From NCBI RefSeq assembly GCF_054482595.1, contig NZ_CM137008.1: a stretch of 64,000 nucleotides of DNA; one strand, 5' to 3'. Below, piece after piece: positions 23,776 to 35,881 of the stretch; the first letter of the stretch is position 1; every line of letters starts with the position of its first letter. A model generated the notes under the pieces. It searched no databases and had not been told where the DNA came from. It was given only the letters and a program-made list of their open reading frames with translations. Made by a program: the position numbers and the translations under genes.

Positions 23776-24705
23776 TTGAACAGCAGAAAATTTGCGAGCA
23801 TGATCGCAATTATTTCACTGCCAGGGATATCAATGGCTTCCAGTAAATCGCTACAGCAGGCAATTGCCAATATAAAAATCTGGCATAAGGGTGAACAGCG
23901 CGCACCGCATAAACCATTGTTATTGCTATACGTATTAGCGGGATACCTGAATGGACATCCACGCCTTTTCGATTATGGATCGGAAATCTACGAACCTCTG
24001 CACAGTTTACTGGAACGTTTTGGGCCACAGCGTTCACAGTACCGACCTGATATGCCGTTCTGGCGATTACAAGGCGACGGATTCTGGCAATTACACAATG
24101 CCGAGCTTTGCTCAACAGCAGGGAGCAGCCGACAACCGCCAGTGAAGGAACTGAACGAATACCACGTTGCAGGCGGTTTCGATGAACAGCACTACGCCTT
24201 GGTAACCGGCAATAAAAAACTCATCAATACTCTGGCGCAACAGATACTCGAAGCGCACTTCACCGAGAGTATTCAGGAAGAAATTGCTGACGAGCTGGGT
24301 TTTGATCTCCAGCAAATCCGTAAACAGTGCGACCCGTTATTTCGCAAAAATGTATTACGCGCTTATAAATACCAGTGCGCGATATGTGGCTTTAATATGC
24401 GCCACGACGACACCACCGTCGCGCTGGAAGCGGCGCATATAAAATGGAAACAGCACGGCGGTCCTTGTGAAATTCCTAATGGCCTGGCGCTTTGCGCAAT
24501 TCACCATAAAGCCTTTGATAAAGGATCGATTGGCCTGGACGAAAATATGCGGGTACTGGTATCAGATGCGGTAAACGGCGGAGGGATCGTTGAGAGATTA
24601 TTCTGGGATTTTGACGGGAAAACTATTGCGTTGCCGCAGGTGCGTAAAAATTACCCTTATGAGGTGTTTGTAGAGTGGCATCGGAAAGAGGTTTTTAGGG
24701 GGTGA
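23776..24705 (+). CDS. HNH-family endonuclease with an N-terminal domain of unknown function
   Basis: C-terminal motif YKYQCAICGFNMRHDDTTVALEAAHIKWKQHGGPCEIPNGLALCAIHHKAFDKG has the C-x2-C ... H ... N ... C-x2-H-H arrangement of HNH nucleases; the N-terminal ~190 aa has no domain I can assign; the true start may be the internal MASSK Met. Confidence 0.6.
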   Translation: MNSRKFASMIAIISLPGISMASSKSLQQAIANIKIWHKGEQRAPHKPLLLLYVLAGYLNGHPRLFDYGSEIYEPLHSLLERFGPQRSQYRPDMPFWRLQGDGFWQLHNAELCSTAGSSRQPPVKELNEYHVAGGFDEQHYALVTGNKKLINTLAQQILEAHFTESIQEEIADELGFDLQQIRKQCDPLFRKNVLRAYKYQCAICGFNMRHDDTTVALEAAHIKWKQHGGPCEIPNGLALCAIHHKAFDKGSIGLDENMRVLVSDAVNGGGIVERLFWDFDGKTIALPQVRKNYPYEVFVEWHRKEVFRG

Positions 24706-25017: not shown

Positions 25018-25320
25018 ATGGAATTGTTAAATACTTATGATGATAAAGAAACAGCTGAAATATTTTTTGAAAAAATAGACGGAGAGAAAAGATTAGCAAG
25101 TGAGAGAGATGCTACAGAAACAGTCTATAACCTCTTCGGGCAACCAACATGGAAAAACTTTTATCTTCTTGATATGTTTAACCTAAAAGAGTTACAAGGG
25201 ATTATAGAGTGTAGAAAAAATGGACAGCCGTTCGACCAGGAACGACACAGGGAAATAATAAAAATGCTTGAATATGCAGCAAAATCGTTTGACCTAATTA
25301 TTCCTGCACATTGGCGATAA
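25018..25320 (+). CDS. Small hypothetical protein (100 aa), acidic
   Basis: ORF preceded by a good RBS (caggaaaatcataATG); very AT-rich; no recognisable motif. Confidence 0.35.
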   Translation: MELLNTYDDKETAEIFFEKIDGEKRLASERDATETVYNLFGQPTWKNFYLLDMFNLKELQGIIECRKNGQPFDQERHREIIKMLEYAAKSFDLIIPAHWR

Positions 25321-25366: not shown

Positions 25367-28300
25367 TTACTCGCTAACCATCTTACTGAATAACTTCTCC
25401 AGATAAACGGGGCCTGTATCCTCAATAAAAAGCACATTTCTGGCTTCCAGATTTTCTTTTGAGTCAGGTACGTTTACTAAGTCAACATAACAAGTTTCAG
25501 AAACAATAAATGCACTTAATGATAAGTTATCATCCGATAATTTATGTTCAAGATTCTTAATTTCTTTATATAATCCGAACTTCGGATCATCAAGATTAAG
25601 ATTGCGAATGCCTTTTGGATCAATAAGACTTAGCCATTGTTTACCACTTTTATCATCGACTAACCACAATAAGAAATCCGGATAAAAATTACCCGCAGTA
25701 GCAAAGCCCAGGCCTTTATTTTTAGAATCCGCATTTCTTAGCAGATATAAACTTTTATCACCAATAATTTTCTGCCCTTTTGTCGAATCAACAAAAGACT
25801 GAAGATCCTGAACAAAAGTAATCTCGCTTGGCGCACCAAGTGCTGCCGGTCGCATTTTTAGCGGTATATTGGCATTTTTTTCAATCGAAAGAAGCGGGTA
25901 ATAGAGATGTTTATCAAAGGTAATAGCAACCATCCCGGATGCACTCCAGGATTTTGCTTTACCGATTTCGCCGTCGATGACCAATTGTTGTAATTGTTCC
26001 AGCCGACTGGCATAAGCCAACCCATCATCAGTTTCTTCGATCTCGAAATGGTACATTTTGATCATACCAGGATCATCTTCTTTCACCTGCGTGACTTCAT
26101 AAAACTGACCTTCATAAGCATTTTTCAAGGTGTTGTAAAAGCGATCAGTATAATCAGTCAGCAGACGAAGCATAATATCTTCCTGCTTAGCAATATCTGC
26201 ATATTGCTTAATCTCAAGCTCTGAAGCTGGAATCAAAAGGGTATACCAACTATTTCCGATCTTTGTCTTACCGGTACAAAAGTCGATCAAACGTTGTTTA
26301 TCCACACGTAAATTTGACCAGCCGCGTTGTAGTTTATAATTCTGAATGGCGAGATAAAGCCGATCAAAATCAAATGCACTAATGATTTTATAATCTAACT
26401 TCGCTTCATTGCGCACGTTAACCGGAGTATTGTCCCCTTTTCTGCTGGTATCAATCGACTCAAGTTTCGGGTATAAGTCCAGCTTAATATGCGGCTGCTT
26501 AATTTTCCCCTGAAAATCAGCAGGAACTTCATACAATTCAGGAAAATAGACACGTTTAAAGCCGAGTCTTTGATTATCTTTATAACCATCTTTAAGCTTA
26601 AGTGTTTTAAGCCTGGTTGCTGGCATATTTGGCCGAGTTTCAAAATTCAGCTCAAGGATCTCGTCACTTGGCGTAATCCCTTCATCTTCCAGGTATTGTT
26701 TAAAGGTTGCCATGTAATCGGCACGTACACCGAATACATTCAGTGTCTCTAATTTTTCCAGATGCAACCCTTTCGGACGCTCACCGGGTGTACTGCGTTT
26801 CAAAGAATAATTGCGACCTTTAAGGCGTACGCCACGACCAAATAACTGAATGATCTGTGAACCTTCTCCACGGCCCATATTGAGCAATCCCATCGTTGAG
26901 ACGCGCCAACTGCTCCAGCCTTCAGTAAATTTTCGCGAGCCGATCAAAATATGTAGTCGCGAGTCTTTGTCATTTAACGTATGAAAGAGTGACTTTGCAA
27001 AATCATCTCTCTGATAATCAAATGTCGTATCCTCTTCACACATTTTGTAAAGAGACGGTGCATCACCAATATTGATAAGGCCAAACGGTTCGGCCTCACC
27101 AACCTGTAATGCCAGTTCACCTTTACTGCCTATTAAATTCAGAACTCGCAGTCGCTGACCAGAGTGAGTGGTGTTAAACAAGCGAGAAAGAATATCTGCG
27201 TAGATATCTTCCGGAGCGTTCATTAGTGCAGTAAAGCGATTTTCAAAAATGTTACGCTCTTTGGTATCGAGGATTCGCGCTTTATTTTTAATGAGATCGT
27301 TAATCCACGCTTTTGCCTGCGTTTCGTGGTTTAAAAACCATGCTAAAAAACGCAATACTGCGTGAATGTCTGAATCTTCACCACTTACCGTATTACCGAC
27401 AAAAACCCACAGCGGTTTTTCGATATTAAATTCACTTAATTTTTCTTTATTCTTATTGAATAAATATTGTTGCTGATAAAAGCTGAGCAAACACGCGGTA
27501 AAATACTCATACCGACGCTCATCTTTTTTATCCTCTTCAGGATTAAGGTTAAGAATCAGTGATTCTTTACCATAACCATCCTCATAGAAGAATTTATAGG
27601 AGTAATCGAACAGAATCGATTTTCCATAGACCTCTCGCGTCGCCTGAATACGCGCATCTCGTTTTTCTTCGCTGGTTAATGCTATTTGCGCTAACTCTTC
27701 TTCGTTCAGTTTACCTAAGGCCGTTGTTTCAAAAAGCAGCTTTGCTTTTTTCTTCTGAATTTCTGTTTCAACTGCCTCAACATTATTGCCACCGGCTACT
27801 GCCTGGCCAAAAGTTGCTGAATATTCAAACGCAAATCCGTCACGTGTTAATTTGTCACGACGGCGCATCCAGGCACCAGCAGCACTTCCGGTGCCTTTAT
27901 GCCCTTCATCAATCAGAACCAGATTGTTGCCTTCAAATGCCTCAACGGCAACAGTTTTGTCACCCATTTCATCGGCAAGTTTATTGATATCAATAACTTC
28001 AATCGTGCCTTTGAAGGGCGCAGATTTACTCTTATCGAATAACTGGTATTGGGTAAATCCTGAGTTTTCCAGCTCATCTAAATGTTGCTTCGACAGGCGT
28101 TCATCCGGAGTAAGCAGGATGATTTTGTCGGGGTAATGGTGGGTATTACCGTTCTGGAAATAATGTAAGTATTGCAAAATATTGACATGCAATAGCAGTG
28201 TCTTACCAGAACCAGTAGCATTCCAGTATGCCAGTTTATTCAAATCATCCAGAATATATGATTTGAACTGATTAGCCCGGTCTTTTGCTGTTTTATCATT

Positions 28301-28747
28301 TTCAGCATTGTATGCTGCCAGCTCGTTATTTAGCCCATCGAGTAATTGCTGTTTACGATTGAAGTACCAGTCCAGGTAGATCTCGGTAAACAAAAGCGAC
28401 AAGTACTGAAAATATTTCATGTTCAGCACAGTGTCTTCTTTGCGATTACGGTGCTCAGTTATCTGCTGCCAGTGCTGCACGATATTGAGATCGTAACGAC
28501 GCAGTTCATCGAGATCGATAAGATCGACCTCGAATAAATAGTTACTCAGCTCATGGAAGAACAAACTTTGGCCATCCTCATGGATGCCTTCAAAGCGATC
28601 TTCACCTAACCGATTCTTCAGACCTTGCAATGTGCCATCTTTAAAAAAATGGAACATAAAGCGGTTCAAAACCAGTTGCTTATGAAAGCTCAGTTTGCTG
28701 TTTGTCTCTTTTTTAACAGCTTTACCGGTGGTCGGTTTTTTAGCCAT
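25367..28747 (-). CDS. SF2 helicase with C-terminal PD-(D/E)xK-like motif (Type III Res-like), third gene of the operon
   Basis: 1126 aa; Walker A NATGSGKT (~aa 177-183), DExH-like VLIDEGHKG (~aa 278-286), SAT-type motif III (YSATFG), motif VI-like QLFGRGVRL, and near the C-terminus YPDFLLWLVDDKSGKQWLSLIDPKG, which fits a PD-(D/E)xK nuclease signature; start overlaps the upstream gene's stop. Confidence 0.65.
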   Translation of the reverse strand: MAKKPTTGKAVKKETNSKLSFHKQLVLNRFMFHFFKDGTLQGLKNRLGEDRFEGIHEDGQSLFFHELSNYLFEVDLIDLDELRRYDLNIVQHWQQITEHRNRKEDTVLNMKYFQYLSLLFTEIYLDWYFNRKQQLLDGLNNELAAYNAENDKTAKDRANQFKSYILDDLNKLAYWNATGSGKTLLLHVNILQYLHYFQNGNTHHYPDKIILLTPDERLSKQHLDELENSGFTQYQLFDKSKSAPFKGTIEVIDINKLADEMGDKTVAVEAFEGNNLVLIDEGHKGTGSAAGAWMRRRDKLTRDGFAFEYSATFGQAVAGGNNVEAVETEIQKKKAKLLFETTALGKLNEEELAQIALTSEEKRDARIQATREVYGKSILFDYSYKFFYEDGYGKESLILNLNPEEDKKDERRYEYFTACLLSFYQQQYLFNKNKEKLSEFNIEKPLWVFVGNTVSGEDSDIHAVLRFLAWFLNHETQAKAWINDLIKNKARILDTKERNIFENRFTALMNAPEDIYADILSRLFNTTHSGQRLRVLNLIGSKGELALQVGEAEPFGLINIGDAPSLYKMCEEDTTFDYQRDDFAKSLFHTLNDKDSRLHILIGSRKFTEGWSSWRVSTMGLLNMGRGEGSQIIQLFGRGVRLKGRNYSLKRSTPGERPKGLHLEKLETLNVFGVRADYMATFKQYLEDEGITPSDEILELNFETRPNMPATRLKTLKLKDGYKDNQRLGFKRVYFPELYEVPADFQGKIKQPHIKLDLYPKLESIDTSRKGDNTPVNVRNEAKLDYKIISAFDFDRLYLAIQNYKLQRGWSNLRVDKQRLIDFCTGKTKIGNSWYTLLIPASELEIKQYADIAKQEDIMLRLLTDYTDRFYNTLKNAYEGQFYEVTQVKEDDPGMIKMYHFEIEETDDGLAYASRLEQLQQLVIDGEIGKAKSWSASGMVAITFDKHLYYPLLSIEKNANIPLKMRPAALGAPSEITFVQDLQSFVDSTKGQKIIGDKSLYLLRNADSKNKGLGFATAGNFYPDFLLWLVDDKSGKQWLSLIDPKGIRNLNLDDPKFGLYKEIKNLEHKLSDDNLSLSAFIVSETCYVDLVNVPDSKENLEARNVLFIEDTGPVYLEKLFSKMVSE

Positions 28748-28749
28748 TC

Positions 28750-31700
28750 TTAAACCTCCTCCGCAAACATCAGGTTCAAGAATTCAGGTTCGATCTGGCG
28801 GATTTTCAGGCTACGAACAATCTCGCCGTCTTCTTCATCAACGGTAAAGGCGGTAGGCAAGTTATGATCGCCATTGATATAGATAACGTCATACGTGTTT
28901 TCTTTTGCATACAAATCAAATCGGTTAGCATATTTATTCAATTCTTCATAACCGATCTTGTCGCAATCGCGCCACAGAATAAGGGTACGCTCGCCTGTTG
29001 GCAGCGTACCTTCAACACGCACATAGCCACGTTCGATATTGGATTCGATGGATTTCACATGTAATCCAATGAGATAGTTGAAAGTTTCAACTAAATCGAT
29101 GTTTTTACGCTCAGTGGCACCGGCGGAATCCGTCGCAATATCCATTTCGTAGTTAAATGGTTTTTTGAAATTATCGATTCCGAGAAAAGAATCTTTACTC
29201 TCATTTTTAATGAGATAATTTAATAGATAATCATTCCTCACATCTGAAGGCAATGTTTCGAAAAGATCTATGGGAGATTTTTTCAGTACTATATTATTTA
29301 AGCAATCTTCATAGCTTTCTAGTTTAATTGTTTTAAGAATATGTGATATACCGTTTTTATCCTGTGGATAACCTTTATTCCACTTATCGCTATAAACGGC
29401 TTTTACAATTCTAGCTTTTATAACTGAATCAGAATGTTCTCCCATTTCAACTAATATATATTTATGATCTTCAGATTTTTCTCTATTTCTATTAATAACA
29501 GCATGTGCGGTGGTTCCACTGCCGCCAAAAAGATCGACTATGGTTTCATTATTAGCACTATGCCATACTGAATCAATAACGCGTTCCATAGTACCTAAGG
29601 ATTTTGGATAAGAAAACAAACCTGCAGAGCCAAACATGGACGTTAATAAATTTGTGCCACCTATGGTAGCATTATATTGTGATCCTTGCCAAATACTAGG
29701 AAGCAGTAACCTTCTTGCGCTATCATGATATAATCTGTTTATGACAAATTTGTTTGAACTTACCAATTCACCTACTTCAATTGCTTTTTTAGCCCCTTCA
29801 TAAGAAAGCGACCAAACTCTTTCTTCCCCATTCTCACCAATGGGATAGACTCTTTTTAAACCTTCTTTGGTTTCACCTACCGGATAATTACCTTTTTCTA
29901 AAGGAACAGGTGGTGGTTCGACTCCTTTAACTTCAAATGTATCAGGGTCAACCAAAACTGCAAAAAAGCTTTCTGGACGACCAGGATTACCAATCCTAAA
30001 ATTATTATCTCCGGTACCAGCTCTTCTAAAACCTCTAGTTCGAATTCCATCCTCCACACTATCCCCTTTGAGAATATCCATTCCTTCTGGTATAGAAAAC
30101 AGACAATATTCATGTGTTCTCGAAACATTTGTTCTACCTGTCCCAGACCCAGGATAGTGCTCAACGATACATTGTAAAACCTCTCTTTCTGGATTGATAC
30201 TTTTTTCCAATTCTTTTAAAAGAGACATTTCTGTATCATCAATAGCATAACAAAAAACACCGTTATTATTTAATAGTTTTTTAGATAAAATGATTCTATC
30301 AGCCATTAATGTAGCCCATGAAGAATCCTTATATCCATTTTTATATAAGATAGGAGTTGCATCAGTATTATATGGTGGATCAAGATATATTATGCTTGTA
30401 CTTTTATCAAACTTAGTCTCAAGGATTTTTAGGGCTTGATAATTTTCAGAGTTGACCAATAGCCCATTAATCTCATTATCAATATTATCAATTGATCGAA
30501 TCAGTTCACATTTAAATTTAGAATCAAAAAAAGTAGTATCAACCATCAGATATGGTGAACTCTTGAGAAATTTCATATCCCGAGAGTTATGCTGTTGAAA
30601 TAGACCTAGCGTACTCCAATGTTTAAATTGTTTATCATTTACTAATATAGTTTGATAAAGAGCATCTGGAATTCTATCTAAAGTAATACAGTATTCCGTA
30701 GAAACAACAAACTTCTTCTTAGTCCAAAGTTTTTTCTGGAAATTCTCAATTTGTGCCAAAAATGTAATGAGTTCCAGTGCAACAGTACGCAAACATTGAA
30801 TCATGCGCAATTGTTTCTCAATATTGGCAAACACTTCTGCATTTTGCACATTATCGAGATTCATTACTTCATTTTTAATATAAAAATCCAGTTCGTTCGT
30901 TAAAAAACCACCGAGATCTTTATGGATAAAGTAGTCTGCTGTATTACGCTGGGTATAAGTTGTAAGGTGACGCTCCAACTCTGTACGTGACGGATTTTTT
31001 TCTGTTGGCGCACGTTTAGCAAGATCAACCCAATGCTGTTGAACTGTTTTATCTGCCAGAATTGTTGAAATAGCGGACTGTACTAAAGCATCCTGCTTAG
31101 TGCCCTTTTTCATTGCCTTATATTCGAAGTGAATAACTAACTCTTCTGTTTCAACGAGTTTACCGTCCACCACAGATGAGTTTTTCACCACTTCTACTGG
31201 CTTATATTCTTGTTCATACTCATCACCTTCTTCATCAATTTTGGTACGAACATGTGGCTCAATAAGTACAAAGCAGCGATCTAATTCATTATCCTTACGG
31301 TTATCTTTTGCTGTGTCCGCTGCGAGCAATTTAAAGCTAACTTTACGACCATCATCTAATTTAAATGAATAATTAGCAAAGTTTTCGCCACTTTTAATGT
31401 AGTACTGGTCCTTATTTGCCCAGTGCAACATCACTTCTTCGCCAGAATAAGGGATGGCGTAGGTATTACCTTTATAACGGCGTTTGCTGATAAAATCGCC
31501 GTTGTCATAATAACGAGAAAAGAAAGTGAGCAGATGGGAAAATACTGCATTTTCATGCTCATTTGCTCCGGATGCCATAGCCGCCAGTTGCTTTTTAAGC
31601 TCCTGTACTTTCGGGCTATCAGCAGGGTCCACACCCGCATCAGTTGCCGCTTTTATTGTCAGTTGCAACTGATGTTCTAATTCTGATTTATTGGCATTTC

Positions 31701-31884
31701 CTGCATCCGCCAGCGCAGACTGGATTTTGGCCTTCAGCTTATTATCCAGATAGTCGTTAATTTCATCAGCACGTGCATTTAAAATACGATAAATACCGAA
31801 ATCCAGTTCTGGTCGATCAATCTGAAAAATTTCTTTTAGCTTCTTAACTAATTCGTTGTACTTACTCATTATTTTCTCTTTCAA
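28750..31884 (-). CDS. Beta-class DNA amino-methyltransferase (N6-adenine or N4-cytosine; Type III Mod-like) with ~480-aa N-terminal extension
   Basis: 1044 aa; catalytic motif IV IIYLDPPYNT (~aa 498-507) lies before the AdoMet motif I DLFGGSGTTAHAV (~aa 784-796), the circular permutation of beta-class MTases; the N-terminal ~480 aa is unassigned. Confidence 0.7.
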   Translation of the reverse strand: MKEKIMSKYNELVKKLKEIFQIDRPELDFGIYRILNARADEINDYLDNKLKAKIQSALADAGNANKSELEHQLQLTIKAATDAGVDPADSPKVQELKKQLAAMASGANEHENAVFSHLLTFFSRYYDNGDFISKRRYKGNTYAIPYSGEEVMLHWANKDQYYIKSGENFANYSFKLDDGRKVSFKLLAADTAKDNRKDNELDRCFVLIEPHVRTKIDEEGDEYEQEYKPVEVVKNSSVVDGKLVETEELVIHFEYKAMKKGTKQDALVQSAISTILADKTVQQHWVDLAKRAPTEKNPSRTELERHLTTYTQRNTADYFIHKDLGGFLTNELDFYIKNEVMNLDNVQNAEVFANIEKQLRMIQCLRTVALELITFLAQIENFQKKLWTKKKFVVSTEYCITLDRIPDALYQTILVNDKQFKHWSTLGLFQQHNSRDMKFLKSSPYLMVDTTFFDSKFKCELIRSIDNIDNEINGLLVNSENYQALKILETKFDKSTSIIYLDPPYNTDATPILYKNGYKDSSWATLMADRIILSKKLLNNNGVFCYAIDDTEMSLLKELEKSINPEREVLQCIVEHYPGSGTGRTNVSRTHEYCLFSIPEGMDILKGDSVEDGIRTRGFRRAGTGDNNFRIGNPGRPESFFAVLVDPDTFEVKGVEPPPVPLEKGNYPVGETKEGLKRVYPIGENGEERVWSLSYEGAKKAIEVGELVSSNKFVINRLYHDSARRLLLPSIWQGSQYNATIGGTNLLTSMFGSAGLFSYPKSLGTMERVIDSVWHSANNETIVDLFGGSGTTAHAVINRNREKSEDHKYILVEMGEHSDSVIKARIVKAVYSDKWNKGYPQDKNGISHILKTIKLESYEDCLNNIVLKKSPIDLFETLPSDVRNDYLLNYLIKNESKDSFLGIDNFKKPFNYEMDIATDSAGATERKNIDLVETFNYLIGLHVKSIESNIERGYVRVEGTLPTGERTLILWRDCDKIGYEELNKYANRFDLYAKENTYDVIYINGDHNLPTAFTVDEEDGEIVRSLKIRQIEPEFLNLMFAEEV

Positions 31885-31889
31885 ATCAA

Positions 31890-34781
31890 TTAAATAACTT
31901 TCCAGCGGATGGAAAAAAGCTCGGTGATATCCGTTTTTTGCTTCATCCGCTCTTCAAGGGCACTGATGAGTTCATCCCGCTTGTCGGCGATCTCATCTTC
32001 AATGTCAAAAATTTCCATACGTTGGCGCTTCTGCTGCCGCTCCAGTAGCTTCAGCTTTTCCTGGTTTTGCTTTTGTTCTTCGATCGATTGTGCCAGTCTG
32101 GCTTCTCGCTTCAACGACTTGATTTGCATTTTGGTATCGCGTAATGCTTCTTCCGCCGCAAAGATCATGTCTTCAGCCCATTTTTCCAGCTTATCTCTTT
32201 CCGCTTCAAAAAGGACATTGTTCTGCTCCAAAACTTCCGCAAGCCTGGCGTCAATTTGCCTGTTCTTGAGTAAGATCAAGTCATCAGGTAATGCATCTAA
32301 ACTTGCCGAATTATCCAGCTTTTCGTTGGTTATTGCAGACAAGTTGAACAGACGTTTACAAGCCTCACCATCTACCACACGGCCGCTGTCAGTTTTCGCG
32401 GTAAAGACTAAAAATTGCTGCCGGTTAAACGCATCAACAGTAAGCAAATTTAGTGTTAACCACCCTGATAGCCCTTTCAGCTGCTCAGCCACCGAGACTT
32501 TCGTTGTGTGGTTACTGTAATCGAAGATGACTTCAGCTGTTTTCGTCTCCTGGGCTTTGGCTCCCTCAATGACGTACTCACCCAGCGGATGATTGATCCG
32601 ATATGCAAAACTGTGGTGATCCTGCATTTGTAACGCACTATTTTGCCTGCCATCTTTGCGCAACAGCTGATACTGCCCCACAGGCAGTTCATTGACTGAC
32701 TCACGTAAAGTAAAACGATGATGCTCATGATCAAAATCAGCATATTGTTTGAGCTGCTGACAGGTAACGGCCCAAAACCAACGACCGACTTTATCCAGAC
32801 GCTCCCGAGCTTCATCAAGCCTTATTTTAAGGATATCGTGAATATCTTCATCAAAATGCTCAAGCAACTGTTCCTGCGTCTTCTGCATCTTGAGATTGAT
32901 TTCATCTTCCAGCTCTTTCTGCAACCTTTCAAAAGCCAGCTCTATCTCCTCGGGGGTACGGCATGACTCATAAATTGACTGGATCCTTTTTTCAAAATCC
33001 ACTCCATTTTCTATGCTGCCAAGCACACTATCCGATGCACCAAACACGCCATCAAACAGGCTGAACTTTTCAGTTAAGAGTTCAAGAACTCGTTGATCGG
33101 CCTGGTTTCGCTGATTGAGGAAGTTAATAACAACCACATCAAACTTTTGCCCGTATCGGTGACAACGCCCAATACGCTGTTCAATGCGTTGTGGATTCCA
33201 GGGTAAATCGTAATTGATCAGTAGCGAACAAAATTGCAGGTTCACCCCTTCAGCTGCAGCTTCTGTAGCTATCATGATTTCAGCATGATCTTTGAAGTGG
33301 TCGATCAAAGCCGAGCGTTTATCAATTTGCGCCGACCCGGTAATACGAGAAGATCCCTGATATTCCTCGCGCCATTGCTGGTAGATCTTGTTTGCCTGCG
33401 GTGTATTGTTTGTGCCACTAAAGGTTACTACTTTCCCCTGGTAGCCATTGTTTTCCAGAAAATGTGCAAGATACTGTTGAGTTCGCATTGACTCCGTGAA
33501 GATGATGACTTTTTTTGCAGCCCCCATTTCGGCAAGCTGTGCAAAACCTTGCTCCAGGCCAGAAAGCAACTCTTTTGATTTGGTATCAGTGCCAATCTGT
33601 TCTGCTTTGACAATGAGTGATTCCAGCTCATTGATTTCTGCCTGAAGCGCGTCTGAATCGACAACTTTGCACTCGGTATCTAAAGCCACTGATTCGGCAT
33701 CTTCCACGATGTCATCTTCAAGATCGTCATCCATTATGATCTGTTGGATGATGTTCATATCATCTTCAACGATACCTTCCAGCTTTAACCTTTCTAAACG
33801 ACTCTTAAGGATCTGCAAGTTATTCAATACAGCTTTCGTACTTGAGGAAAGTAGCTTTCTGAGAATAAGCCCCGTCAGATGCCGGTGTCGTTTTGGTAAG
33901 GCATAGCTATCCTCACGTTCAAGCAATTTTTGTACGCGTTCATAAAGATCCTGCTCCTGTTCGCTCGGATAGAAAGGAATAGTGATCGCTTTACGTTCTG
34001 TATACTTGATGTACTCCAGCACATTCTTGCGTAAAGTTCGTTTGATAAAACGCGACAATCGCCCCTTCAACTCCGCAATATCGCTATCTGCCTGCATATA
34101 TTGCTTTCTGAACGCTTTAACTTCGCCGAAGGTATGTTCATCTATAAGCGTCGACATGCCATACAGTTCCATTAACGAATTCTGTAAAGGCGTTGCGGTC
34201 AGTAGTAATTTTTTCCGCCCATCAAGCGCACGCTTTAACGCTTGCCCCATTTTGTTACTTTCTCGATGAGCATTACGCAGTTTATGGGCTTCGTCGATAA
34301 CAACCAGATCCCACATTTCAGCCACCAATTTTTCTTCTAACCGAGCAGCATAGTGGTATGACATGATAGTGATCGATTTATTATTTAAGGGATTATGGAT
34401 CCCTTCTTTTTGAAGCTGGCTATACGTTTTCGCGTCCAACACCTGAGAAGGTAGATTGAACTTTTCCTGTAACTCGCTCGCCCATTGGCGACGCAGTGAA
34501 GCAGGACAAATGATCAACAGTTTACGTTTTCTTTCAGCCCACAACTGGCAAAGCACTAACCCCGCTTCAATGGTTTTACCTAAACCAACTTCATCGGCAA
34601 GCACAACACCTTTGCTTAGCGGATTTTCAATAGCAAAAAGAGCCGCCTCAATTTGATGAGGATTTAGATCTACGCTTGCATCAAACAGCGATTGAGACAG
34701 ACGGTCCACCCCATTGTTTGAATGGAGAATGGAAAGTTCATGCGCAAAATATTTCGCATGATAAGGTGTTGTACCAATCAT
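31890..34781 (-). CDS. SNF2/RAD54-family helicase, first gene of the operon
   Basis: 963 aa; motif I LADEVGLGKT (~aa 61-70), motif II VVIDEAHKLRN (~aa 160-170), motif III LLLTATPLQN, motif VI QRIGRCHRYGQK; long charged coiled-coil C-terminus. Confidence 0.75.
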   Translation of the reverse strand: MIGTTPYHAKYFAHELSILHSNNGVDRLSQSLFDASVDLNPHQIEAALFAIENPLSKGVVLADEVGLGKTIEAGLVLCQLWAERKRKLLIICPASLRRQWASELQEKFNLPSQVLDAKTYSQLQKEGIHNPLNNKSITIMSYHYAARLEEKLVAEMWDLVVIDEAHKLRNAHRESNKMGQALKRALDGRKKLLLTATPLQNSLMELYGMSTLIDEHTFGEVKAFRKQYMQADSDIAELKGRLSRFIKRTLRKNVLEYIKYTERKAITIPFYPSEQEQDLYERVQKLLEREDSYALPKRHRHLTGLILRKLLSSSTKAVLNNLQILKSRLERLKLEGIVEDDMNIIQQIIMDDDLEDDIVEDAESVALDTECKVVDSDALQAEINELESLIVKAEQIGTDTKSKELLSGLEQGFAQLAEMGAAKKVIIFTESMRTQQYLAHFLENNGYQGKVVTFSGTNNTPQANKIYQQWREEYQGSSRITGSAQIDKRSALIDHFKDHAEIMIATEAAAEGVNLQFCSLLINYDLPWNPQRIEQRIGRCHRYGQKFDVVVINFLNQRNQADQRVLELLTEKFSLFDGVFGASDSVLGSIENGVDFEKRIQSIYESCRTPEEIELAFERLQKELEDEINLKMQKTQEQLLEHFDEDIHDILKIRLDEARERLDKVGRWFWAVTCQQLKQYADFDHEHHRFTLRESVNELPVGQYQLLRKDGRQNSALQMQDHHSFAYRINHPLGEYVIEGAKAQETKTAEVIFDYSNHTTKVSVAEQLKGLSGWLTLNLLTVDAFNRQQFLVFTAKTDSGRVVDGEACKRLFNLSAITNEKLDNSASLDALPDDLILLKNRQIDARLAEVLEQNNVLFEAERDKLEKWAEDMIFAAEEALRDTKMQIKSLKREARLAQSIEEQKQNQEKLKLLERQQKRQRMEIFDIEDEIADKRDELISALEERMKQKTDITELFSIRWKVI

Positions 34782-35193: not shown

Positions 35194-35881
35194 ATGTGAC
35201 TTAACCTCATGATTTAAAATTGTTAATAATAAACAATATCATCTTATACCAACACAGATACCAACACGAAAAATCACTGGTTTTCGGCATCGAACCAGGA
35301 CAATCAGCTCCTGATTGAGATACCGAGCTCTGTTACTCGTCATCTTCCTCGACAGGCTTCATTGCATCAAGTAGTACTCGCACCATCGCGATAGAACCAA
35401 TCCGGATAAAAGCATCTTCTCCATCTATATCTGTTAACTGATATCGCTCACTTGATGCCGGATAAGTGTGTCGATTTGCAGCTGTGTACTCTTTTGTACA
35501 GCCAGAATGTGGCTGACTGAGGTGGAGCAGATAATGTCCCCGTTGACCACTTCCGGACGGGAGGCTGTGATTTCAGACATAATTGATATTCCTTTTTGCA
35601 GATAAATGAAAACGCCAGCCCTGTTCAGGCTGGCGTCAGTGGAATGAAGTATGGTGAGTAATATTTATCGGTTCTGGTGCAGAAGCTGCAGTTGGCGCAG
35701 GGTACGGATACCCTCCCTGGCCTGTTCGATACAGGGCAACAGTGCTGCCGAATCCGTTTTATCCTCATCGTTGTCAAAGATAATTCCCGATTCGCAGTCG
35801 ATATTGTCCTGCAGCCACACAATCAGAATATCCAGCGCCGTTTCTGTGGTTAATGATTTCATCCTGTGTCTTTTGTCCTGG

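Follow-up and report, generated by a model that had tools for sequence, protein, structure and literature searches.

A widespread N-terminal module of Type III Mod methyltransferases forms part of a constant frame around an exchangeable catalytic core

The DNA analysed here is a stretch of 64,000 nucleotides of an Escherichia coli chromosome (NCBI RefSeq assembly GCF_054482595.1, contig NZ_CM137008.1), which we call the window and which is 100% identical to XH990 and Santai. In the leuX defence island, adjoining nanC/fim, it encodes a restriction-modification (R-M) operon of Type III with three co-directional and tightly packed genes on the minus strand: an SNF2-like (DrmD/BrxHII-like) ATPase (31890..34781; 963 aa), the methyltransferase Mod (28750..31869; 1039 aa from its ATG) and its partner Res (25367..28747; 1126 aa). 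The stop codon of the ATPase gene lies 20 nt ahead of the ATG of mod, and res starts 2 nt past the mod stop. The G+C content of the operon (25367-34781) is 37-41%, against ~50% in the flanking core genes, which is consistent with horizontal acquisition. Our subject is the long N-terminal extension of Mod. We find that the system as such is known, that the allele in the window is a new member of it, and that the N-terminal domain is real and widespread, and one of which we came across no description.

The maximal open reading frame (ORF) of mod spans 28750..31884 on the minus strand and gives 1044 aa from an upstream TTG; the RefSeq start is the ATG at 31869, with a Shine-Dalgarno-like AAGAGA run a few bases upstream, and gives 1039 aa. 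The length of 1044 aa in a preliminary description, made from the sequence alone, therefore holds for the maximal ORF but not for the RefSeq protein. The same description placed the catalytic motifs in the C-terminal half, and they are found there once the offset of five residues is taken into account: DPPY at aa 497-500 (ORF numbering 502-505) and FGGSGT at aa 781-786 (ORF numbering 786-791). They follow the order of a beta-class amino-methyltransferase (MTase), i.e., motif IV (DPPY), then a hypervariable stretch at aa ~590-750 that corresponds to the target recognition domain (TRD), then motif I (FGGSGT). Pfam recognises PF01555 alone (ORF aa 498-817), and the PADLOC model MTase_III PDLC03646 matches the full length of the protein with 1652 bits.

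The chromosome of E. coli NCTC86 carries the same three genes, syntenic and at the same place (leuX island to nanC/fim). The Res proteins of the two loci are identical over 1126 of 1126 residues, and the ATPases over 958 of 963. Mod is a mosaic: aa 1-400 are 98% identical and aa 841-1039 are 83% identical, whereas the central ~440-480 residues (MTase core and TRD) are just 16-40% identical, with essentially no nucleotide similarity. The catalytic cassette taken by itself is 30-40% identical to that of M.Eco86II. Murray et al. described in 2021 a set of Type III R-M systems producing N4-methylcytosine (m4C), Eco86II of NCTC86 among them (PMC8259958). With Res and the ATPase near-identical at the same locus and Mod mosaic, the window carries an allele of Eco86II, presumably with a new specificity. 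The operon thus belongs to the Eco86II/BspHIV three-gene Type III R-M subgroup, whose characteristic SF2 helicase-like ATPase directly 5' of mod is present here. An extra gene of this kind at this position accompanies such Type III systems in >500 genomes, and its product has no nuclease motif (PMC8259958).

Several properties of Eco86II bear on what follows. M.Eco86II by itself fully methylates GAGCC to m4C; the native, partly purified enzyme (Mod and Res) cuts ~25 bp 3' of the site, and the active preparation contained peptides of Mod and Res and zero from the helicase-like ATPase (PMC8259958). The Type III traits of hemimethylation at an asymmetric site and of ATP-dependent cleavage that requires sites in head-to-head orientation have biochemical proof for Eco86II (PMC8259958). 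The N-terminal extension goes unmentioned in that paper, where the term 'N-terminal' has 0 occurrences (PMC8259958). The size of the 5.9-kb pRRS clone would fit a mod gene of ~3.1 kb. Since the central residues of Mod diverge from those of Eco86II, the recognition sequence of the window allele should differ from GAGCC, and the allele may methylate either base (m4C or N6-methyladenine, m6A).

The limits of the mosaic are sharp at the nucleotide level. Between the first base of the SNF2 gene and Mod codon ~400, window and NCTC86 agree at 98.4% of positions; from there to codon ~841-879 they have no nucleotide similarity, with the one exception of 64 nt at motif IV that are 78% identical; and an identity of 97.5% resumes after ~codon 841-879 and extends to the end of res. 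We compared the window with the E. coli alleles of NCTC86, NIST0056, FORC_031 and SI-NP020. NIST0056 is 98.5% identical to Eco86II throughout, which gives four cassette classes: the window, Eco86II/NIST0056, FORC_031 and SI-NP020. In all comparisons between classes the middle is replaced, with the 5' junction at codon 388-405 and the 3' junction at codon 874-899. Outside it, the four alleles have nucleotide identities of 96-98% over codons 1-388/405 and of 94-97% over the last ~150-160 codons. Divergent homologues show the same pattern of constant ends and replaced middle at the protein level, and the ends are also constant and the middle variable in classical mod alleles. Among 5426 complete E. 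coli genomes, 157 contain the N-terminal 1200 nt, 17 the middle cassette of the window and 34 that of Eco86II.

The exchangeable unit, as these alleles show, is the whole canonical beta-class Mod core with its TRD (aa 401-840; 29350..30669, minus strand, as are all parts of Mod given here), with the DPPY of motif IV at 30370-30381, the TRD at ~29620-30102 and the FGGSGT of motif I at 29512-29529. The N-terminal ~400 and the C-terminal ~150-200 residues make up a constant frame, which stays together with Res and the SNF2-like ATPase. The C-terminal part of this frame (aa 841-1039; 28753..29349) is likewise a conserved extension to which no domain is assigned: it has no Pfam match, and the alleles are 83-85% identical there at the protein level. 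The swapped cassettes share no nucleotide similarity beyond the stretch around motif IV, which implies that their donors would lie outside the E. coli allele pool.

These breakpoints bear directly on the extent and on one proposed role of the extension. The 5' junction is the point where, in the full-length AlphaFold2 (AF2) model, the predicted local distance difference test score (pLDDT) climbs to 92-98 and the MTase fold begins. Recombination breakpoints and model together bound the extra module at ~aa 1-400 (30670..31869) instead of 1-480. The extension is thus extra with respect to the classical Mods of ~650 aa, as first described, but shorter than the ~480 aa then given. It had also been proposed as a target-recognition module. 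This role is refuted by the alleles, since the N-terminus keeps 96-98% nucleotide identity while the TRD-bearing middle differs wholly.

That the extension lacks a recognisable domain was borne out by our searches: residues 1-~455 are covered by no match from Pfam, NCBIfam, PDB sequences or PDB/BFVD folds. Residues 1-460 searched alone had zero Pfam matches even at E<=10; NCBIfam had zero matches in the N-terminal region, and PADLOC at E<=10 returned for it only the two MTase_III models (PDLC03646 and PDLC03638). The solved Type III Mods (7dsu of Mbo45V, 6k0w and 4zcf of EcoP15I) align from ~residue 445-460 onward only, with the single sequence as with a 90-sequence profile, and the matches of the Mod profile to the Protein Data Bank (PDB) are confined to the core (E 8e-59 for 6k0w, 1e-58 for 7dsu and 8e-58 for 4zcf). 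The structure prediction and fold comparison proposed in the preliminary description gave a confident AF2 model of residues 1-476 (82-sequence alignment; mean pLDDT 86.4), for which Foldseek found no match in the PDB (best E 0.38) and none among predicted viral structures (BFVD). No fold similarity of the module to MmeI- or PglX-like N-terminal or helical-spacer domains was found. A literature search with the RefSeq protein accessions had no match. The region is routine in a large clade, the one covered by PDLC03646 and PDLC03638, yet no description of it as a domain was found, so that the suggestion that it might be an already described domain holds only for its frequency. We rejected some other candidates along the way. 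The string IHKD might recall HKD/PLD enzymes, and by inspection its spacing is wrong. A weak BLAST self-hit that might suggest a duplication of the N-terminus in the C-terminus of Mod was ruled out by hhalign (probability <1%). Two apparent stand-alone N-domain genes were set aside: in one (P0134) an MTase ORF comes 250 nt after the N-domain ORF, a pair that we read as a putative disrupted gene, and the contig of the other (P0193) is too short to judge.

The module contains the best-conserved parts of Mod. In an alignment of 90 sequences (33-83% identity), scored in blocks of 20 residues, the highest conservation of the whole protein is at aa 141-160 (0.87), 321-340 (0.83) and 301-320 (0.79), compared with 0.65 for aa 481-500, which include DPPY, and 0.75 for aa 781-800, which include FGGSGT. 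The full-length AF2 model (pLDDT 83.4, predicted template modelling score 0.77) starts with short helices bearing an invariant LDFGIYRI motif, followed by a predicted long antiparallel helical hairpin (aa 34-120; 31510..31770) of moderate conservation (0.41-0.59), by a beta-rich region (aa 121-255) and by a helical region (aa 256-385) that ends in the basic run FQKKLWxKKKF. The best-conserved block, aa 113-170 (31360..31533; FFxRYYxxGDF...YAIPYxGEEVxLHWANxDQYYIKS; conservation 0.75-0.87), has the invariants L113, F116, R119, D125, N152, D154, Q155, Y157 and K159, and within it the pLDDT falls below 50 at aa 136-153 and 139-148 in the two models. It is separated by a variable beta-hairpin insert (aa 201-240; 31150..31269; 35-73% gaps in the alignment) from a second conserved block, aa 296-400 (30670..30984; DYFIHKDLGGFL..ELDFYIKNE ... 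FLAQxENFQKKLWxKKKFV..YCITLDR; conservation 0.71-0.83), which ends at the recombination junction and has the invariants D312, F314, H316, F322, L323, E326, L327, E375 and K386. Past the junction, Q414 and W418 are further invariants of Mod. The sole parts that AF2 cannot place, even in the full-length model, are the well-conserved loops at aa 139-148, 186-193 and 309-311, as would be expected of a surface that becomes ordered upon partner binding. The module is net acidic (isoelectric point, pI, 5.95; 57 K+R vs 63 D+E).

Relatives of the module are numerous. With residues 1-460 as query, an exhaustive HMMER search gave 2394 clusters (50% identity) at E<=0.001; in 150 of the 150 best matches listed, the domain is at the N-terminus, mostly of proteins of ~1000 aa, with some shorter fragments. 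Among species-representative genomes, relatives occur in at least 551, spread over many phyla, and plasmid records add haloarchaea, Thermotogota and Bacillota. We examined the neighbourhood of 80 loci, of which 68 could be judged for Res (the DNA of the remaining 12 stops short or, for L019, has a truncated mod), and a homologous Res stands beside Mod in all 68. The Res of the window has an SF2 helicase and a C-terminal PD...DxK nuclease motif (~25613-25684); it matches Pfam ResIII and, over its full length, PADLOC REase_III PDLC03654, and the motifs GxGKT, DEGH, SAT, QxxGRGxR and F.PDF...DPKG are conserved. For the Res of this Eco86II-type clade, no PDB chain was found by sequence, that of EcoP15I Res included.

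The SNF2 gene is a frequent neighbour, and not a constant one. Among the 55 loci with enough DNA on both sides to judge, it is co-oriented and adjacent in 48 (upstream in 40, downstream of res in 8) and absent from 7, which have at least 3.5 kb on either side. At 5 of these 7 the large neighbouring ORFs were checked and have unrelated Pfam domains. Alignment of 6 of the SNF2-less loci shows all 26 N-terminal invariants that were checked to be intact, as they are in a haloarchaeal plasmid system that also lacks SNF2, and at equal Res identity the N-terminal identity is no lower in SNF2-less than in SNF2-containing loci. Since the module is intact where SNF2 is missing, it is tied to a distinctive Mod-Res clade and not to the SNF2 gene. 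Gene order varies as well: mod-res-SNF2 replaces SNF2-mod-res in Pasteurellaceae, Cardiobacterium, Moraxella and Neisseria (L038, L039, L041-L043, L046, L049 and L063). In many other genomes one or two unrelated genes separate mod from res, either a YhcG/DUF1016 PDDEXK nuclease or a pair of AAA_21 and DUF4276 genes (L013, 13117-14217; L022, 13304-15072), and comparable gaps of 1-3 kb are present in L015, L017, L023, L031-L033, L055 and L077. These insertions resemble the hitch-hiker genes inside Type I loci.

A sister family of shorter 'long Mods' (~800-900 aa, here called the ~820-aa family; PADLOC MTase_III PDLC03638) is homologous to the window Mod across module and core (hhalign probability 100%, E 1e-86). 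It includes the Mods of Athalassotoga pATS2 and Rhodothermus pRHOM17201 and shares the motifs FFxRY(Y/F), W..xxxYY(I/V)K, D(Y/F)FI.K, QxE.. and W.K.KFV..Y.ITLDR; the block at aa 296-400 is common to PDLC03638 and to the alignment of this family. In contrast, the sister Mods lack the helical hairpin (a gap at ~aa 58-104) and the variable insert, and they have lost D125, N152, D154, Q155, H316 and E326. In the one pair compared, the Rhodothermus Res is homologous to that of the window (26-30% identical, with the same PDF...DPKG motif). In the two example loci, of Rhodothermus and Athalassotoga, a Res gene is present and an SNF2 gene is not. The Res-dependent methylases DthLIII and FnoB1III might fall in this family, of which plasmid sizes and the DPPF motif give no more than a hint; no named match turned up.

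Compared with classical Type III systems (EcoP15I, 4zcf; Mbo45V, 7dsu; 6k0w), the window Mod is alike in the order motif IV, TRD, motif I, and its partner Res likewise combines an SF2 motor with a PD-(D/E)xK nuclease at the C-terminus. It differs in its ends: the classical Mods of ~570-650 aa have ~90 residues ahead of the core, whereas the window Mod has ~400 (from the junction) to 455 (from the sequence) ahead of it and ~150-200 after. The pairing of an SNF2-family ATPase with a large DNA methyltransferase in a defence island is also seen in DISARM class 1 (DrmD/DrmMI), ARMADA (ArmA/ArmB) and BREX (BrxHII/PglX). The ATPase of the window (Pfam SNF2-rel_dom and Helicase_C) scores best against DrmD models, with 659 bits for PADLOC DrmD and, for NCBIfam DISARM_DrmD_b, 667 bits, under the curated cut-off of 950. 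Past its helicase core it has a C-terminal region of ~300 residues (aa ~650-963) with no Pfam match, whose terminal stretch is strongly charged and coiled-coil-like. The methyltransferases of DISARM, ARMADA and BREX are PglX-like (pfam13659, NPPW), whereas the window Mod is of the beta class (PF01555) and no PADLOC DrmMI or PglX model matches it, and the comparison with DrmMI made earlier does not apply. DISARM and ARMADA use effectors of the YprA/DrmAB type, of which the operon has none. We therefore rejected DISARM class 1 (no drmA or drmB match in the operon, REase_III as third gene, unrelated neighbours on both sides, wrong type of Mod) and ARMADA type II (PglX-like ArmB, YprA-like ArmC with DUF1998 and GajB-like ArmD all missing from the operon).

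What, then, might the module do? The reading that we favour, with a probability of about 0.5, is that of an enlarged, clade-specific N-terminal domain (NTD) for Mod dimerisation and Res coupling. It would be the enlarged counterpart of the helical NTD that builds the Mod2 dimer in classical Type III Mods, and would assemble the Mod dimer and/or couple it to the distinctive Res of the clade, while the C-terminal constant region would play the part of the classical C-terminal domain (CTD). Recombination at the boundary of the module (codon ~390-405) would swap specificities, and the frame would stay matched to the near-invariant Res and SNF2-like proteins. The module itself would neither read the DNA sequence nor catalyse methyl transfer. 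We base this reading on the analogy with EcoP15I, on the behaviour of the module as part of a constant frame and on its strict co-occurrence with the cognate Res. In EcoP15I the NTD helices of the Mods intertwine as part of a Mod2 interface of ~4000 Å^2, and one of the Mods touches Res with its CTD (PMC4490356).

Several points weigh against this reading. Dimerisation and Res coupling are proposed solely from analogy and co-occurrence, and partners in an operon co-occur under any mechanism, which makes co-occurrence weak evidence. The conservation is unusually high for a scaffold, with invariant polar residues (R119, D125, N152, D154, Q155, K159, D312, H316, E326 and E375) in loops that AF2 does not place, and these could mark a ligand-binding, DNA-binding or catalytic site. 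Moreover, M.Eco86II alone methylates fully, hence the purpose of the module is not Res-dependent methylation. Finally, a remote known fold may have escaped the searches of Pfam, NCBIfam, PDB sequences and PDB/BFVD folds.

We tentatively consider, as a possibility of lesser weight, that the module has a novel fold and a separate function: either an allosteric coupler among Mod, Res and, where present, SNF2, or a sensor of ligands or DNA structure formed by the three invariant loops that cannot be modelled. In the coupler version it could relay motor activity, or whether the site is methylated, among Mod, Res and the SNF2-like ATPase. If this were true, the 'long-Mod' proteins would make up a separate superfamily of Type III-like systems in bacteria and archaea that works unlike EcoP15I.

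It is rather doubtful that the module is an extra, sequence-independent DNA-binding or clamping domain near the site, which might aid site communication or the positioning of cleavage. The invariant basic run FQKKLWxKKKF (K379, K384-386) and the conserved R119, R130, K159, K192 and R198 would suit such a role, and the low AF2 confidence of the conserved loops is what induced fit on a ligand would give; but the module is net acidic, and the sister family has not retained many of the polar invariants.

Slightly more doubtful still is the docking of the upstream-encoded SNF2-like ATPase, by which a second motor would be brought to the Mod-Res complex. The preliminary description had named such an interaction surface among its options, and some observations agree with it: the adjacency of the co-oriented gene in 48 of 55 loci extends to distant metagenomic relatives, pairs of SNF2 and MTase recur in DISARM I, ARMADA and BREX, and in E. 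coli the N-terminal DNA is continuous with the SNF2 gene at 98.4% identity across alleles. The distribution of the module speaks against it, since its invariants are kept in the SNF2-less loci, its identity at matched Res identity is equal with or without SNF2, and the ~820-aa family carries it with no SNF2 gene in either example locus. The lack of ATPase peptides in the active native Eco86II preparation points the same way (PMC8259958). We conclude that this role is not supported.

A sensor, likewise raised in the preliminary description, or a regulatory domain, which would gate restriction or methylation when it meets an anti-restriction protein, a small molecule or some cue from a phage, is unlikely. 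The very high conservation of surface loops that AF2 cannot place and the location in a defence island would be compatible with it, and the need of some Type III m4C systems for Res in methylation indicates that regulation differs among them (PMC8259958). However, no known ligand-binding fold or motif was found, M.Eco86II expressed alone methylates constitutively and the sequence data hold nothing specific to sensing. We give least credence, and very little, to a cryptic enzyme, e.g., a diverged nuclease using D125, E144/E145, D154, K159 or D312/H316: the spacing of the invariant acidic, His and Lys residues is somewhat D...ExK-like and the architecture, in which an N-terminal alpha/beta module precedes a helical region, MTase and TRD, bears a loose resemblance to that of Type IIL/IIG enzymes, but D125, N152, D154, Q155, H316 and E326 are not kept in the ~820-aa family, Res already bears a conserved PD...DxK nuclease, and no nuclease fold was recovered for the module. 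The corresponding PD-(D/E)xK reading of D125...E145-x-K147 was rejected because the would-be ExK lysine is variable (Lys in 60 of 90 sequences) and is Met in the window Mod.

The surroundings of the operon contain further genes of interest. Directly upstream of the SNF2 gene, E. coli genomes including NCTC86 have truncated helix-turn-helix (HTH) regulator pseudogenes in the RefSeq annotation (window ~35333-35580), and two distant metagenomic operons have small intact HTH genes ahead of the SNF2 gene (HTH_17; HTH_31/HTH_3; L003, 5840-6049, and L004, 5718-6020). These may be C-protein-like controllers that have decayed in E. coli. On the other side, ~660 nt from the end of res, lies a gene annotated as 'phosphorothioated DNA-binding restriction endonuclease' (23833-24705, plus strand), with an HNH remnant just upstream; it has the same position in XH990, DETEC-C31 and NCTC86, i.e., a Type IV-like enzyme is paired with the Type III system in one islet. 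Between it and res is a hypothetical ORF of 100 aa (25018-25320, plus strand; WP_000421875.1), kept in 3 of the 3 strains inspected. Farther along the leuX island, the annotation of DETEC-C31, a matching genome, includes a Kiwa system (kwaA, kwaB; window ~54318-55913), and between the operon and Kiwa (~35.6-42.4 kb) are CP4-type island genes, with a CbtA/YeeU toxin-antitoxin pair and an antirestriction protein among them.

For R-M biology the advance is incremental, and this is not a new type of defence. What is new is that the operon has been identified with Eco86II, that a fixed recombination junction marks the limit of the domain and that the domain is neither a TRD nor dependent on SNF2. 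Systems of these three genes are common (157 among 5426 complete E. coli genomes, and at least 551 species representatives), yet they have been characterised in one paper (PMC8259958), and neither function nor fold is assigned to ~40% of their Mod, which is also its best-conserved part. As natural alleles show, the catalytic and TRD cassette can be exchanged at a fixed junction on a constant frame, which amounts to a design rule for the engineering of specificity. The 5' junction also provides a clean boundary for truncations, and could help to explain how the long-Mod Type III systems assemble and what role their extra ATPase plays.

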